Source: Lingula anatina
Taxonomy: Eukaryota > Animalia > Brachiopoda
Assembly (NCBI GenBank): GCA_051362555.1
Contig: CM120643.1
Location: forward strand, 9,486,001 to 9,550,000
DNA: 64,000 nt
Reading direction: 5' to 3'
Below the pieces are notes generated by a model. It had not been told where the DNA came from. It searched no databases and saw only the letters and a program-made list of their open reading frames with translations. Positions 9,332 through 64,000 of this stretch are shown piece after piece. The stretch's first letter is position 1, and each line of letters starts with the position of its first letter. Made by a program: the position numbers and the translations under genes.

Positions 9332-9811
9332 CTTGTCTCCTCTCTTCGCTGATCAGCGTCTGTACGAGTTAGTTCGTCATCATTAGCACCGTCATGTTCG
9401 TTGCTCCACTTGTCTTTCCATCCTTCTGGCCTCAACGACCTTTACTATTGGAAACTGACCTACTTTATGACTGAACAAAATGATAAATCTACCGCTACCG
9501 GGGAACAGATATACTTTTAAAAGAATTAAGTTAAAATAAATAGTTCTGCTAGTGATAAAAAGAAAACACAAAATAGTAAATTGCAATTTATGTAAGAACT
9601 ATTGATAAATTTTATAAGTTTAGCATTTATTTTACTACAATTTCTTGCCGCCCCCTTAATCACAATCTTTATTTTAGCTCCAAGGTCATTGCGCATGGCA
9701 ACTCAGTGCGACTTTGTAAAGATGCTGGCAGCAGCTACACAAGCAGAAAAATACTTTTATCCTTTGCAAAAAAATTAAGCCCCGTCTTCGTGGGCTTTCA
9801 AACTCGATTCG
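9332..9811. promoter_or_regulatory. Putative bidirectional promoter and 5'UTRs shared by LPCAT and CK1alpha
   Basis: Only 480 bp separate the divergent ATGs at 9331 (minus) and 9812 (plus); transcription starts are not identifiable from sequence. Confidence 0.6.
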
Positions 9812-10813
9812 ATGAAATCGTCAAGGATGGATAGCGGAAGCGACAGGCCCACTAGCAAGTCGGAGTTCATAGTTGGACAAAAGTATCGTTTGATAAGAAA
9901 AATAGGGAGTGGTTCGTTTGGGGACATCTACTTGGGGATAAACATATCAAATGGGGAGGAAGTTGCGGTCAAATTGGAGCCCCTCAAAGCGCGGCATCCT
10001 CAGCTTCTTTACGAAAGCAAGGTCTACAAGATTTTGCAGGGAGGGATAGGTATTCCTCACATTCGTTGGTTCGGGCTGGAGAAAGAATATAACACTTTGG
10101 TCATGGACCTCCTTGGTCCCTCCCTGGAGGATTTGTTTAACTTTGTATCCAGGCGATTCACAATGAAGACGGTGCTAATGTTGGCAGACCAGATGATAGG
10201 ACGCATTGAATATGTCCACAACAAGAATTTTATTCATCGTGACATTAAACCCGATAATTTCCTCATGGGCATTGGCAGGCATTGCAACAAAGTGTTTTTG
10301 ATTGACTTTGGTCTGGCCAAAAAGTACCGCGACTCACACTCTCGCACTCACATCCCATATCGAGAAGACAAAAACTTGACTGGCACAGCACGCTATGCCA
10401 GTATCAATGCTCACATGGGGATTGAGCAAAGTCGTCGCGATGACATGCAGTCCCTTGGATACGTGCTCATGTATTTCAATCGTGGCAGTCTGCCATGGCA
10501 GGGGTTGAAAGCTGCAACGAAAAAGCAAAAATACGAGCGCATCAGTGAGAAAAAGATGTCCACTCCAGTGGAAGTCTTGTGCAAAGGTTTCCCAGCAGAA
10601 TTTGCCATGTACCTCAACTACAGCCGAGGCCTAAGATTTGATGAAAATCCCGATTACATGTACTTACGCCAGCTATTCCGCATCTTGTTTCGCACTTTGA
10701 ATTACCAATATGACTACACTTTTGATTGGACCATGCTGAAGCAGAAAGCTGCTGCTGTTCATGTAGGCAATTCTGGCTCGGCCCGGCCCGTCAACCCGAC
10801 AGGGGGCCATTGA
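9812..10813 (+). CDS. CSNK1A1: Casein kinase I isoform alpha, single-exon CDS (333 aa)
   Basis: [52 protein letters not shown], and the CK1alpha-type C-terminus [16 protein letters not shown]; uninterrupted ORF. Confidence 0.97.
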
Positions 10814-58258: not shown

Positions 58259-59202
58259 CTAAAATCAATGGCAATTTGTTGGCTTTGGTTAGTTTATCAT
58301 CTGGAAGCATTTTTAGTGACCTTTACAACTGAAAGTATCAAGACATTATCTTGTATTAAATAAAAGTTTTTTTTACGATACATTTAATTTCATATTTGCC
58401 AGTATATGGAATTATTTCAAATAAAAAGGAAGAAAATTTCACAAAAAATAAACACTGTCTTGTAACTTTCTGTATTGTCAATGAGTGTTAGATCTTTATA
58501 TAAATAAAGTTTTTTCCTCAAAGTATCAACTATTTTCCCTTACAATCACCAAGGTATGCAATATCAAATACCATTCGTAAAACTGTAATTGATAAAATTT
58601 GTTTTTCAGGCTCTAGTTTTCAGTTTTTGAGTAATGCTGAAAGACACTGGTGTATTTCACAATGGATTGACAGATCAATTTTTTTCAACAGTTATGGATA
58701 GGGCACCACCATACCTTGATGATAAAGAGAAGATTAAAGTTAAATAATAATATTATTTATTTTTTTCATTGCTATATAAAGATCTAGTGTACATCATATG
58801 TCTTCCATCTTAAAATAAAAATAAATAAGTATGACTACTGTAGCACATGATTTTAATTTATATGAGTAAAAGGCTCCACTAGTACTATTAGCATATAAAG
58901 CAGTTAGACATAATATATATATTTTTTAATTTATAGACTGAAATGCTTTCTATAAAGCAAAATTACAATAACCCAAAGCAAAAAATGGCGAATTTTAATT
59001 CTCTATTCAAATAATTTGTCCCAATTTACTGGGTATCAAACAATAAAATTGCTATATAAATATGTATCTCAAAAAAAAAAAAAAAAAGTTCAAGAAATGT
59101 TCATGTTATTTTACGTAAAATACTATTCAAATGTTCAAGTAGTACCAGTACATTTTTATAAAAAATAATATATATATATATATAAAAATATAAAAATAAT
59201 AG

Positions 59203-59430
59203 TGTAGTGCCGAGGGGTCATTGCATGACCCGGAAGCATGTCACGGCGCATGCGTAGTAGTGAGTTGAAGTTGAGAGCGTTGGAGTTGAGCATGGCGCGC
59301 TCAAGCGCATGGTGCTAAGTTGTGGTGAAGAGAGAATTAACAAGAAAACGAGGACTTGGATGCCTATTCAGAAAAGGTAGGCACTTTACTTATTCATAGG
59401 CCAGTTGTAACCCACAACCCGGTTTCTATA
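59203..59430 (+). repeat. Putative 5' LTR (~228 bp)
   Basis: Begins TGTAG after an AT-rich host flank and ends CTATA (imperfect inverted terminus) 1 nt before the PBS; the 3' LTR is not in the window. Confidence 0.7.
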
Positions 59431-59431
59431 T

Positions 59432-59452
59432 TGGTGGCAGCCGGGCCGGATT
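59432..59452 (+). promoter_or_regulatory. Primer-binding site, probably tRNA-Leu
   Basis: TGGTGGCAGC is complementary to the 3' end of eukaryotic tRNA-Leu(AAG/UAG) (...GCUGCCACCA); the match degrades after 10 nt. Confidence 0.7.
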
Positions 59453-59696
59453 TGTGCCACATTTGGGCAGAAAAGTTGCGAATTTTTCTGCTGAGGAGTT
59501 TTTCAGCCACGGAGCTGAACTCCGCACTCAGGCACGCTACCCTACCATTTTAATGTTTATTGTTGTATAAATTGTATATGAGGAAACCCCAGCACGGACT
59601 GGTGAGTGTTTTTAGAGTGTTTTTACAGTAGTTTCTTACAAGTTTTAAGGAGTTTTCTGGAATTTTCGGCGGCACGTGCGCCAAGGAAAAAACAAA

Positions 59697-61802
59697 ATGG
59701 CGACGCACGCCAGGATTTTCATAAATTATGCAAATGTAAATGAGTTAATGCGGACTCCAGGTCTCACGGAAGACCAAGTGTTCAAAATAGCCGAATTGAG
59801 GGAACAGTTTGGAAATTTAAATGTGCAGCAAGTGGAAAGTGCTTTGTGCTGCAGACTGGCTCCTCGTACGCTGGATATGGTGGACTTTGAGCCGAATCAG
59901 CGCTTGGGTGTGGGCAGCACGGCTGTTTCACTCAGGGAAAGGAAGGTGCAGGAGACAGGAGGATCTGGAAACTGGCTATGGAGATTTTTCCGGTTTCTTT
60001 TAGGACTGTTCTTCGGATTTTCTGCTCAGGAGGAGAGCAACGCTTTCAATAGCGAAAGTGCGCCTCACGGAGGTGGCACGCGGCAGCTAGGAGGCTGTGA
60101 GGGTCAAATGAGTGCACGTCGTAACTCGGAGGCCACGGTGCCGAAGAGATTATTCGAGGATAGTGGACTGGAGGGAGCGAATTCGCCTCAACTTGTCAAA
60201 CGGAGCCCAGGTAAAAATGTAGTTAAGAATGTAAATAGTGGGGTTCAGCAGGGGGGTCCTTATGTTCCATATACACCTAGCCCCATGGGGGGTGGGGTAG
60301 CATTAGGTCCCGGGAGTCAGGATAGGGCTGTTTACACCCCTGAATTGTTTACACCTAGTCCAGGGGGGGGCGTTGTAAGGGAGACTCCTATGTCCGGGGA
60401 TGTCCGGGGGGAGGGGTATGCTATTGGCCCGGGGGGTGGTGGCAGCTATTCGGGTTACCCTGGGAATCATAGCCCTCCAATGGCACCTGGTGTCAGTTCC
60501 CCAGTCATGCACCCTGGGAATCACGGATTCTCAGTACCGCACCCTGGAAATCACAGTTCTCCAACCATGTACCCTGGGAATCACGGATTCTCAGTACAAC
60601 ACCCTGGAAATCACAGCTCTCCAGCCGTGCACCCTGGGAATCACGGATTCTCAGTACTGCACCCTGGAAATCACAGCTCTCCAGCCATGTACCCTGGGAA
60701 TCACGGATTCTCAGTACAACACCCTGGAAGTCACAGCTCTCCAGACGTACACCCTGGGGATCACGGATCTCCAGTGGTGGGAAGTGGATCGAATTCAGGG
60801 CACTTAGTGTATCATAGCACCCCAGTGGAGGGAGGTAGCCAGGACGAACACCCTGTATTCCAGGGCTCTCCTATATTGAAACGGGGCGCGGCCTCGAGGA
60901 GGACTGCACGGCTCACGGAGCTAGGGGCAGAACAAGACTCAATAGAGAGGAGGAAGGTCAATCCTCCTAAGAGCTTAACTTTTAACGGACACGGAAGTTG
61001 GGCTGCTTTTAAGTTGCTTTTCTTACGACAGGCAGAGAGGGAGGATTGGGATCGCGACATGTCCCTGGATGCACTATGCCTCTGCCTGAAGGGTAAAGTC
61101 CTAGACTGTTGTGTGAACGTCACACGCAGGCTAGGTAAGCTCTCATATGAAGGTCTCATGGAGGAATTGGAGACCTGTTACGGAGAAACGGACACACCGG
61201 CTACGGTCCGGTCGCAGCTACATAACGCTACTCAAGGCGAGACAGAAACGGTGGATGAATGGGGAGTCAGGGTGCTACGTCTGACTTCTGAAGCGTATGC
61301 TCAGCTACCTAGGACATTCGTGGAGTCAGAGGCTGTAAGTCGGTTCTGCGCGGGCATGATTGATTCAGAGGCAGGTCAATCAATTTATATGCGACAGCCA
61401 GCCACCTTAAGGGAAGCGATGCAGCTGGCTAAGATGCATAGGGAAATGCGTGTGACTATGGAGAATGCGGGAAAGAAATTGCGCCCGGGAGCCAAGCGAG
61501 CCAACCAAGTGACGCCTGCAGCAGAGGGTAACATTCCAGAGCTGGAACAGATGAGGGACACCATCAAGGAAATGGAGAAGGCGTTGAAAGATGTCCGCCA
61601 GGAGCTGAGTAGGAGGTCATCTACCGGTTACGGCCACGGAGCCGCACCCGGAAACCAGCGGGGCTGGGGACGGGGCAGCACTGGAAGCTCGGTGCTGTGT
61701 TATAAATGCAATCGGCAAGGGCACATTGCAAGGGAGTGCCCGCAGGTGGGAAACTCCACCGGGTCGAGGCCGGAGGCCAACCCTCGACCCAGCGATTCAT
61801 AG
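59697..61802 (+). CDS. gag: Gag (701 aa from ATG 59697): HhH-like N-terminus, hydrophobic helix, decapeptide repeats, capsid-like domain, coiled coil, CCHC knuckle
   Basis: aaaATGG context. Capsid-like LTFNGHGSWAAFK...W...L...LKG...QGETETVDEWGVRV...RFCAGM...PATLREAM, and CYKCNRQGHIAREC. Confidence 0.9.
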   Translation: MATHARIFINYANVNELMRTPGLTEDQVFKIAELREQFGNLNVQQVESALCCRLAPRTLDMVDFEPNQRLGVGSTAVSLRERKVQETGGSGNWLWRFFRFLLGLFFGFSAQEESNAFNSESAPHGGGTRQLGGCEGQMSARRNSEATVPKRLFEDSGLEGANSPQLVKRSPGKNVVKNVNSGVQQGGPYVPYTPSPMGGGVALGPGSQDRAVYTPELFTPSPGGGVVRETPMSGDVRGEGYAIGPGGGGSYSGYPGNHSPPMAPGVSSPVMHPGNHGFSVPHPGNHSSPTMYPGNHGFSVQHPGNHSSPAVHPGNHGFSVLHPGNHSSPAMYPGNHGFSVQHPGSHSSPDVHPGDHGSPVVGSGSNSGHLVYHSTPVEGGSQDEHPVFQGSPILKRGAASRRTARLTELGAEQDSIERRKVNPPKSLTFNGHGSWAAFKLLFLRQAEREDWDRDMSLDALCLCLKGKVLDCCVNVTRRLGKLSYEGLMEELETCYGETDTPATVRSQLHNATQGETETVDEWGVRVLRLTSEAYAQLPRTFVESEAVSRFCAGMIDSEAGQSIYMRQPATLREAMQLAKMHREMRVTMENAGKKLRPGAKRANQVTPAAEGNIPELEQMRDTIKEMEKALKDVRQELSRRSSTGYGHGAAPGNQRGWGRGSTGSSVLCYKCNRQGHIARECPQVGNSTGSRPEANPRPSDS
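60510..60779 (+). repeat. Coding minisatellite: nine 30-bp units in an alternating 60-bp dimer, (H/Y)PGNH(GFSV/SSP.).
   Basis: accctgg(g/a)aatcac(gg/ag) recurs every 30 bp. Confidence 0.95.
61748..61790 (+). other. Programmed -1 ribosomal frameshift signal: G GGA AAC, 6-nt spacer, 9-bp GC-rich hairpin
   Basis: Heptamer 61748-61754 is in the gag frame; GGGTCGAGG (61761-61769) pairs with CCTCGACCC (61782-61790); the -1 frame is the pol frame. Confidence 0.88.
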
Positions 61803-64000
61803 GCCCAGATGTTATAAATAAGCCCATTAAGAAACTCAGGGTACCAGAGGAGTCAGCAGTTTCGGATATTAAGTGCACTGTACCCACGGAGGTACAGGGT
61901 GTGCAATCAGAATTTACTCGACAGGGTGCAGCACTAGTCCAAGACAAGCCCAACCGTGATACGAGTCACGTTGAATCACCAACTAGGGCAGATGAGGCTA
62001 CCACAGGGGGAATACAGGGCACGGTTCCTGCTCCCATGGTAGTGGTGCGACAAATCGGAACAGTGGCGGATTATTCACTTCAGATGAAAGTGGGAAACAT
62101 TGCTGTGAATGCTGTAGTGGACACTGCGGCTCAAGTTACGATACTTTCAGACCGCATTTACAACAGTCTTAAGAAACAACCTAAGAGGTTGAATTCAGTA
62201 CAGCTTTTAGCCGCTGGTCGGGAAATGGTGATGCAGGGGTTCACGGCAGGCCCTGTTAAGTTAAAGATTGGACATAAGTGGTATGCTGTGAGGCTATACG
62301 TAGCCCCCATTGAACAGGATATGTTGCTGGGAATGGACATTATGAAGGACTTAGGACAGGCAGTAGTGGATGTCGGCAGAGGAGTGATGCAGTTTGACGG
62401 CATGTATCTGACATTAGACGCTAATTCAGATAAGGGAACACCTCAGATGGCCAGGGTCACTGTCGCACGGCGCCAGGTGATACCCCCTTACTCCGCTGCC
62501 AGGGTGGCCTGTAAGTTAGATGTAGATCTTCCTAGTTATGTAATAGAGCCAAAGGTGGGGGGTGTTGGTAAGTTCCTTGCTCCCAGGGTTATTCGTAATG
62601 GGGGGTCTGAACCCATCATGGTCCTCATAAATCCCAGTGAGAGGCACAGACTACTGCGTAAGGGTACTGAAGTGGGGCGGGCTTTTACCTATGCGGGTAT
62701 TATAACGTCTGGGGAGCCCCTGGGGGATCCGTTATGTTTCCCTAGTAACCAAGGGGAGGGTGGCAGGTCACCTGGGGCGGAGGTCATTCACTGCATACCA
62801 CCAGCAGTGCAGTCAGTCACGGCACGGACCGATGACGAGGTCAATGACGAGGCGCGACGCGTGCCTTCTCATTTAAAGCAGGTGTATGAGGGATCCAGTG
62901 CAGAATTAGATGATCAGCAGAAAGTTCACCTAGCGAGATTACTCACGGAGTATCAGGATGTGTTTGCTAGAGACGAATTTGATTTAGGAAACTTCACATT
63001 GGTTGAGCATAAGATAGACACTGGTACTGCTCTTCCGATAAAGCAGAGAATGCGGCGAACGCCACGGTGCTTTGTGGGCGAGGAGGAAGCCCATTTACAG
63101 AAGATGTTGAAGGCAGGAGTGATTCAGGAGTCAACTTCCGACTGGGCGTCGGCGCCAGTGTTAATACGGAAGAAAGATGGCTCTGTGAGGTGGTGTATCG
63201 ATTACCGTGCGTTGAATGCCGTGACCACTAAGGACGTGTTCCCATTACCCTTAGTCGATGACTGTTTGGATACCTTGTCGGGTAATGTGTATTTTTCTAA
63301 GTTGGACGCCAACTCTGCGTATTGGCAGGTGCCCATACGTGAAGAGGATCGGAAAAAGACAGCTTTCATTACGAAATATGGTCTCTATGAGCATGTGCGT
63401 ATGGCATTTGGTCTGTGCGGGGCGCCCGCGACCTATGCTCGGATAATGAACTTAGTTTTCCGTGGAATGTCCTGGAAAACTGTGCTGGCATTTCTAGATG
63501 ACATAGTGGTACTCGGTACTACTTTTGATGTGCATTTACAGAACCTAAGGGACGCCCTTGAGAGGTTCCGCAGCTACGAGCTGAAGCTTAAGCCAAAGAA
63601 ATGCACCTTCTTTAAGAAGGAGATTGAATTTCTCGGACGGATAGTGACAGGGGAGACGCTCTCCATGTCTGATCATGACATTAAGGCTGTCACGGAATGG
63701 CCTACACCAACATGTGCCAAAGATGTGGAGAAATTCATGGGCTTGGCTAATTACCATCGAGCCTTTATTAAAAACTTCAGTGAGATAGCGGCACCCCTGT
63801 ACGCTGTAACTGGAAAGAGTTACGAGTGGGGTGAGGAACAAGCACGGGCTTTTACGGCATTAAAGGGGGCATTAACATCTCCCCCAGTTCTTTCTGTTCC
63901 CACGGTGGACGGAGAGTTCATTTTAGATACAGACGCAAGTGACTTTGCTATAGGAGCAGAGCTTATTCAAGTACAAGATGGCCAGGAGAAAGTGATAGCT
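61748..64000 (+). CDS. pol: Pol polyprotein (partial): aspartic protease, reverse transcriptase, start of RNase H
   Basis: One frame (-1 relative to gag) carries AVVDTAAQVT (GAC 62120), SDWASAPVLIRKKDGSVRWCIDYRALN, MAFGLCGAPATY, AFLDDIVV (63491) and FILDTDAS (63926); no stop seen before the window edge. Confidence 0.93.

Follow-up and report, generated by a model that had tools for sequence, protein, structure and literature searches.

We analyzed a retrotransposon lying at the end of a 64,000-nucleotide stretch of Lingula anatina DNA (GenBank assembly GCA_051362555.1, contig CM120643.1, positions 9,486,001 to 9,550,000; referred to here as the window). Judged by its sequence, the element is a Ty3/Gypsy (Metaviridae) long terminal repeat (LTR) retrotransposon with an intact gag, and it is young in age class. 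Its Gag starts with a helix-hairpin-helix (HhH) domain of the type found in ComEA and EEPD1, and we are almost certain that this domain is genuine and present throughout the clade to which the element belongs. The domain was likely captured once from a cellular gene. Our best overall explanation, to which we give an even chance, is that the captured, clade-wide HhH domain serves as a chromatin tether and that a hydrophobic helix following it is a passenger.

A ComEA/EEPD1-type HhH domain at the N terminus of Gag

An initial annotation of the window had proposed a ComEA/EEPD1-type HhH domain and a membrane-type helix at the start of Gag, quoting peptides encoded at 59715-59819 and 59973-60026. 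Both peptides are exact translations within one uninterrupted open reading frame (ORF) of 701 amino acids. The HhH domain is backed by profile, structure, and conservation at the location proposed, but the real domain is longer (residues 7-65) than the stretch quoted. In a search with residues 1-120, Pfam HHH_3 (PF12836) matched residues 7-41 at E=3.9e-4; its 20.9 bits fall short of the curated cut-off (27). The top sequence match in the Protein Data Bank (PDB) was EEPD1 (E=0.0014, Gag residues 4-65). On a profile grown from relatives without the window protein, the window Gag scored 36.2 bits, and the family profile retrieved both EEPD1 (E=1e-14) and ComEA (E=9e-9).

The predicted structure agrees with these matches. 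An AlphaFold model of the domain (pLDDT 84.8) has the compact two-HhH fold of ComEA, and its best fold match was ComEA itself (8dss; Z 8.5, rmsd 2.2 over 65 residues), followed by Tex (Z 7.1) and a ComEA-like protein (6.6), with KIF22, PsbU, and TEFM also among the matches. ComEA was likewise the top Foldseek match (probability 1.0, E=0.078). Like ComEA (PDB 8dss, 2duy) and the (HhH)2 domain of EEPD1 (PDB 9yi2), the Gag domain has a compact four-helix fold over its entire length and the pattern IN...L...PG.G...A..I...R, and its terminal hydrophobic residue aligns to EEPD1. Unlike them, it sits at a retrotransposon N terminus, it lacks Gly-x-Gly in the second hairpin, its key lysine is mostly shifted or absent, and in the window copy the hairpin is acidic and the Pfam score lies under the cut-off. 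The last five columns of the alignment used for the model are misaligned onto the capsid (CA) domain, so that model residues 68-72 are meaningless; a first alignment of relatives, which had forced residues 88-103 onto CA columns, was dropped.

Some of the best BFVD matches to the domain model came from giant viruses (Yasminevirus, Klosneuvirus, Indivirus, and Hyperionvirus). These are ComEA-like HhH proteins, all at E >0.08, and such proteins are a possible donor of the Gag HhH.

Spread of the HhH domain across related Gags

When the entire Gag was used as query in a full HMMER scan, 2845 proteins were returned at E<=0.001, and the best 150 of these, which are Gags 24-37% identical to the window Gag, were analyzed further. 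Among 30 relatives looked up were entries from Lingula anatina and Mercenaria mercenaria. A profile built without the window protein found HhH in 81 of the 150, and the domain began within the first 30 residues in 76 of 82 proteins when the window protein was counted. Detection depended on the length of the N terminus: 80 of 109 relatives with at least 100 residues before CA carried the domain, as did 63 of 72 with at least 200. The figure of 81/150 is inflated, since relatives were ranked on the whole Gag, which tells against its use as a measure of clade-wide presence, and it is also deflated, as many gene calls begin at an inner Met. When the first 24 HhH-positive relatives were scanned with Pfam, 18 matched HHH_3 at E<=0.001, 11 reached the HHH_3 curated cut-off, and 12 passed some curated Pfam HhH cut-off.

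On a quick, unrooted CA tree of 102 of 151 rows (49 HhH-less rows with <150 residues before CA were left out), HhH-bearing rows occurred on all main branches, with HhH-negative rows dispersed among them. Gain and loss of the domain required 16 changes against a shuffled mean of 18.5, and a single origin was not shown. This distribution fits ancestral presence followed by losses or truncated gene calls. Word-indexed homologue searches (residues 1-115, residues 415-690, and one alignment) came back blank and carry no weight given the 2845 HMMER matches, and a reverse transcriptase (RT) scan of viral contigs gave no relative.

Complete relatives encode an integrase-PHD finger and a TatD protein

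We examined 12 relative loci, of which five have HhH and two (L005 and L007) reach the end of pol. Both of these encode protease, RT, RNase H, and integrase in that order, with the integrase ending in a PHD finger (2/2 complete loci), and their RTs are 72% (150/209) and 68% (141/207) identical to that of the window element. The third gene is not env in either complete relative; ORF3 instead encodes a TatD-domain protein (Table 1). By extension from these loci, the window element probably carries a TatD third gene rather than env. The rotifer LTR elements Juno and Vesta also have a non-env nuclease ORF3, which is a DEDDy nuclease instead of TatD (PMC5408684). In the literature searched, judged by title, we found no description of a TatD-bearing Gypsy LTR retrotransposon, and the words PHD, TatD, and hairpin are absent from the main text of surveys of mollusc and annelid LTR elements (PMC6238403, PMC8556966). 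A further locus, L008, has a 485-amino-acid ORF (2-1456) without a Pfam match lying 5' of an HhH-less, protease-fused gag.

Hairpin residues and the possible function of the HhH domain

DNA binding by ComEA requires the GIG hairpin and the lysines that follow it (PMC3879209, PMC9747964), and HhH contacts are made to the phosphate backbone independently of sequence (PMC3879209). In 61 aligned relatives, the first hairpin has Gly22 in 53/61, Gly24 in 50/61, and a basic residue at position 26 in 29/61, and 28 of the 61 combine both glycines with a basic residue. The Gly-hydrophobic-Gly motif is present in the first HhH of 50 of 73 complete domains. We suggest that the HhH domain of this clade plausibly binds nucleic acid, weakly and via one hairpin. 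The window copy has drifted from this pattern: its hairpin reads PGLTEDQ, with the second Gly gone and acids at positions 25-26, a state seen in 0/61 relatives, and GLTEDQ does not match Gly-hydrophobic-Gly followed by lysine. Because its hairpin lacks the second Gly and carries two acids not seen in 61 relatives, DNA binding by the window copy is doubtful, and we predict it to be weak or lost.

The initial annotation had offered three roles for the extension: envelope-free budding, vesicle transfer, and chromatin tethering. The last is the most plausible of them, and the first two are without support. As the function of the HhH domain across the clade, we put a DNA or chromatin tether somewhat short of even. 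In the mechanism that we propose, the long linker would display the HhH domain outside the capsid shell, by analogy with the position of matrix in retroviral Gag, which serves as the model for its placement. Many weak phosphate-backbone contacts would then keep the core, or the pre-integration complex, attached to host chromatin, and the integrase PHD finger would choose the integration site. The Gag of foamy viruses and p12 of murine leukemia virus (MLV) are chromatin-tethering analogues of such a Gag. In the window copy, the drifted hairpin (PGLTED) would weaken or abolish its own DNA binding.

Several points weigh against tethering. A basic residue at position 27, which by an inferred mapping aligns to the key lysine of ComEA, occurs in only 4/61 relatives, the second hairpin is without Gly-x-Gly in every complete domain, and the median net charge of the domains is -1. 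PsbU and GspK, which are HhH folds without a DNA function, are among the fold matches. The position outside the shell is argued from analogy.

Some of these points would suit a different function, in which the domain is a pseudo-HhH that mediates protein interactions such as Gag-Gag contact or recruitment of a host or ORF3 protein. Core residues N10, L17, A28, R35, and F64 are conserved in at least 90% of relatives while DNA-contact positions vary and net charge is near zero, an intact multi-copy family tolerates an acidic hairpin, and PsbU and GspK have the same fold. The co-occurrence of both glycines and a basic residue in 28/61 relatives is hard to explain without nucleic-acid contact, and we judge a protein-interaction module to be unlikely.

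The nucleic acid bound might also be RNA or nascent cDNA, with the HhH domain acting in packaging, export, or genome shielding like the putative RNA-binding domain (RBD) of PNMA-type Gags. PNMA-related metaviruses have an RBD-CA-nucleocapsid (NC) Gag (PMC11011659), the CA of the present clade is nearest to PNMA2 by fold and profile, the backbone contacts of HhH are sequence-independent (PMC3879209), and the fold matches include Tex and Spt6. Against this, Gag already has a zinc knuckle, and the closest matches, ComEA and EEPD1, bind double-stranded DNA (PMC9747964, PMC12988330). We consider an RNA or cDNA role improbable to a similar degree.

A hydrophobic segment private to the window subfamily

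The second peptide of the initial annotation, residues 93-110, exceeds every other 18-mer of the protein in hydrophobicity (Fauchere-Pliska mean 1.13) and has a hydrophobic moment of 0.46-0.51 and a net charge of +2. Its HeliQuest discriminant (1.09-1.14) lies inside the band of 0.68-1.34 that is classed as 'possible'. With a best Kyte-Doolittle mean of 0.94 over 19 residues, and with two internal Arg that limit the uncharged core to 11 residues, the segment is by these measures too short to span a membrane and is no transmembrane helix. AlphaFold places a low-confidence helix at residues 93-105, isolated in a linker of about 340 disordered residues (pLDDT about 53-62). The amphipathic order is modest, as 2-3% of residue shuffles match the moment, in a window chosen post hoc. 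Base composition alone attains the hydrophobicity in 16% of stop-free shuffles.

Comparison with relatives argues that the segment is a local feature. None of the 150 best relatives has a comparable segment (12 F/W/L per 18 residues here, against a maximum of 8 elsewhere), and the linkers of the 81 HhH-bearing relatives reach at most 7 F/W/L per 18 residues. The ten closest relatives have acidic or Ser-rich sequence in its place, and as an outlier against relatives' linkers it is equalled by 19 of 16,590 windows scoring equally low. One sister-subfamily contig can be aligned over 59762-59955 (38 differences/194) and over 60204-60480; there, with flanks about 80% identical, 219 different letters replace 59956-60203 and the HhH DNA is retained. 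The proposal that a membrane helix forms part of a conserved matrix-like extension therefore fails with its absence from 150 relatives and its replacement in the sister subfamily. The annotation's own test, conservation of both segments among family members, is passed by the HhH domain and failed by the helix. Very probably, the segment is not a trait of the clade; it is probably a subfamily-private piece of a fast-changing linker, carried as a passenger, and probably not a membrane anchor.

Three observations sit less easily with a passenger. Hydrophobicity and moment together were reached in only 0.04% of base shuffles (with thresholds set at the observed values), the sister's 219 letters are not visible, so that a similar helix there is possible, and the segment is gapless in main-subfamily contigs of three runs. 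Copies of the main subfamily are too similar to reveal selection on the segment, which may have a private function in the window subfamily.

One such function would be membrane targeting: in this subfamily at least, HhH and helix would together act as a matrix-like unit that serves vesicle transfer or budding without an envelope. In addition to the moment and charge of the helix, its Arg and Gly residues line a narrow face and its aromatic residues a broad one, AlphaFold gives it helical form, the complete relatives have no env, and both EEPD1 and the ComEA of Gram-positive bacteria are HhH proteins anchored in a membrane (PMC12209743, PMC9747964). The absence of the segment from all 150 relatives, its replacement in the sister subfamily, its short uncharged core, and the ease with which shuffles reach its hydrophobicity speak against this idea. 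A retroviral matrix (MA) likewise stands ahead of CA, but the HhH-Gag shares with it neither a Met-Gly start nor a conserved membrane element or basic patch: Gag starts Met-Ala and so has no myristoylation start, the HhH domain has a net charge of -4 and no basic membrane patch, and among 75 relatives whose HhH is terminal, 1 starts Met-Gly. Three fold searches with the N-terminal model ranked HhH proteins best and listed no retroviral matrix structure, although an MA fold could have gone unlisted. We regard a membrane-targeting unit as very unlikely. We give the same slight chance to a combined reading, in which an ancient Gypsy clade of marine invertebrates equipped its capsid with a captured DNA-binding fold of the ComEA/EEPD1 type, next to integrase-PHD and a TatD nuclease gene, and in which this subfamily is now rewiring that module, its DNA hairpin having decayed and a new amphipathic helix beside it having become a de novo matrix-like membrane anchor in an env-less element.

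Instead, the segment could be incidental to its DNA, which would be either a pyrimidine tract serving splice acceptors at 60003 and 60029 or linker DNA read in a shifted frame. This concerns the helix only and is compatible with our best explanation. The AGs at 60003 and 60029 rank 3 and 1 among the 183 YAG sites of the element by pyrimidine content, their 14 and 15 pyrimidines of 20 are akin to four host acceptors (11-15), and both lie 3' of donors at 59376 and 59601. Relative to linker composition, the gag frame over 59952-60032 falls at the 1st percentile, against an ordinary 26th and 6th percentile for the +1 frame, and the sister contig differs via non-triplet gaps summing to -18. However, the +1 frame is interrupted by a stop at 60001, the enrichment of T is greater at codon positions 1 and 2 (10/18 each) than at position 3 (6/18), and the 5' donors are explained more simply by a spliced ORF3 message. 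RNA reads over 59860-60179 were absent from five runs, with no splice joint seen; the reads on the element, 36 and 19 from these runs, are too few to judge expression or splicing. A DNA-level origin is thus a tentative alternative, with the chances leaning clearly the other way. A likeness of the segment DNA to the 5' leader was dropped after 23 of 500 shuffles proved equally good.

Relation to known Gag architectures

Most descriptions of Ty3/Gypsy Gag N termini give helices or disorder, and a single RNA-binding fold is known. The statement that canonical Ty3/Gypsy Gag consists of CA plus NC only is too strong, since N-terminal extensions, including an RNA-binding fold, have been described (PMC11011659, PMC10309623). 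The nearest precedent of the HhH-Gag is the RBD-CA-NC Gag of PNMA-related metaviruses. Both have a folded, putative nucleic-acid-binding domain followed by a PNMA-like CA and a zinc knuckle, and a retroviral matrix fold is apparent in neither (PMC11011659). The RBD is an RRM-like alpha/beta fold in vertebrate elements (PMC11011659), whereas the HhH-Gag has an all-helical HhH domain and a linker of 20-650 residues in marine invertebrate elements; the word 'hairpin' is absent from the main text of PMC11011659. Cer1 and CERV of Caenorhabditis elegans similarly provide a Ty3/Gypsy Gag with a large non-matrix N terminus, as well as a spliced accessory gene, but the extension of Cer1 is a coiled coil, and the 'helix-hairpin-helix' named for the H domain of CERV contains a leucine zipper and is not described there as a ComEA-type motif (PMC10309623). 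Capture of a host DNA-reading domain has a parallel in CopiaMBD, where the domain biases integration; that MBD reads methyl-CpG in a Copia element, unlike the non-specific HhH in a Gypsy Gag (PMC6673714).

We found no description of an HhH-Gag in the literature searched, a scope outside which Repbase, Dfam, GyDB, subscription journals, and supplements may hold one, and it is apparently an undescribed Gag architecture of a large clade. A compact HhH domain that is easy to express and occurs across hundreds of diverged families offers a handle on how the cores of env-less retrotransposons reach host chromatin, with natural variants bearing intact or decayed hairpins as built-in controls. It also explains 'ComEA-like' annotations in invertebrate gene sets as transposon Gags.

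Organization of the element

The element sits in a GC-richer island within AT-rich animal DNA at the end of the window, which itself ends in RNase H; the 3' half and second LTR lie beyond the window edge, and a single LTR-like end and the primer-binding site are visible inside it (Table 1). The primer-binding site is presumably of the tRNA-Leu type, and its 10-mer also occurs 5' of the HhH-Gag in locus L002. Contig depth is 27-101 in the flank and 190-630 inside the element, a depth that does not equal copy number. According to contigs from public runs, the element belongs to a multi-copy family whose members are nearly identical and which has one or more sister subfamilies.

Gag runs from the HhH domain through the long disordered linker to CA and the zinc knuckle, so that the CA and CCHC knuckle of a Ty3/Gypsy gag are both present. 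The Pfam retrotransposon capsid match covers residues 463-554, and the capsid model is closest to PNMA2 (Foldseek E=8e-5), followed by dArc and Ty3. In the window, pol reads protease, RT, and RNase H, and integrase follows RNase H in L005 and L007. Slippery-type heptamers near the end of gag also occur in L002, L005, and L007, and the signal at 61748-61790 is of the textbook -1 type.

Four RNA reads of run X11 exit the LTR at the donor-like 59376, with remainders matching nothing in 58900-62200. They perhaps stem from a spliced LTR-driven message, possibly that of ORF3. Use of the donor at 59599..59607 was seen in no RNA read.

Table 1. Features of the window element and TatD ORFs of related loci
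Feature	Position	Strand	Basis or remark
Likely 5' LTR	59203..59430	+	starts TGTAG, 3' end approximate; contig depth rise
Splice-donor-like site in LTR (AAG/GTAGGC)	59374..59382	+	motif; RNA reads exit at 59376
Primer-binding site TGGTGGCAGC	59432..59441	+	sequence
Consensus splice donor in 5' leader (CTG/GTGAGT), 5' of gag start	59599..59607	+	motif only
gag ORF, 701 amino acids, uninterrupted	59697..61802	+	translation
HhH domain, ComEA/EEPD1 (HHH_3) type, Gag residues 7-65	59715..59891	+	profile, structure, conservation
Aromatic amphipathic segment, Gag residues 93-110	59973..60026	+	T-rich DNA; acceptor-like AGs at 60003, 60029
60-nt tandem repeat, 4.6 copies, in disordered Pro/Gly/His/Ser linker	60494..60768	+	
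Capsid (CA), residues about 420-595, PNMA2/Arc/Ty3-like	60954..61481	+	Pfam Retrotrans_gag, PNMA; Foldseek
CCHC zinc knuckle, residues 668-683	61698..61745	+	Pfam zf-CCHC E=1.2e-6
Predicted -1 frameshift signal: GGGAAAC, 6-nt spacer, 9-bp hairpin	61748..61790	+	fold -18.2 kcal/mol; pol in -1 frame
pol frame: protease, RT, RNase H start; runs past window end	61706..64000	+	Pfam
Third ORF, C-terminal TatD	L005 6627-9350		E 2e-39
Third ORF, C-terminal TatD	L007 6346-9591		E 4e-37
TatD ORF, 5' of primer site	L002 1-1881		E 6e-33

Host genes elsewhere in the window

A host gene on the minus strand, for an amino-acid transporter that is SLC7-like by eye, has four tandem look-alike exons of 243 nucleotides, with first bases at 58259, 57028, 56392, and 54231. 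Each is flanked by AG and GTAAGT, and the other three have 60-62% protein identity to the 57028 exon; this arrangement suggests that their splicing might be mutually exclusive. The LTR element is on the opposite strand, 5' of these exons. An uninterrupted ORF of 344 amino acids at 9779-10810 (plus strand) is casein-kinase-1-like by eye and may be a retrocopy. On the minus strand, an uninterrupted 425-amino-acid ORF at 24898-23624 resembles a tRNA deaminase subunit by eye, and a C2H2 zinc-finger array occupies a 511-amino-acid frame at 44169-42637.

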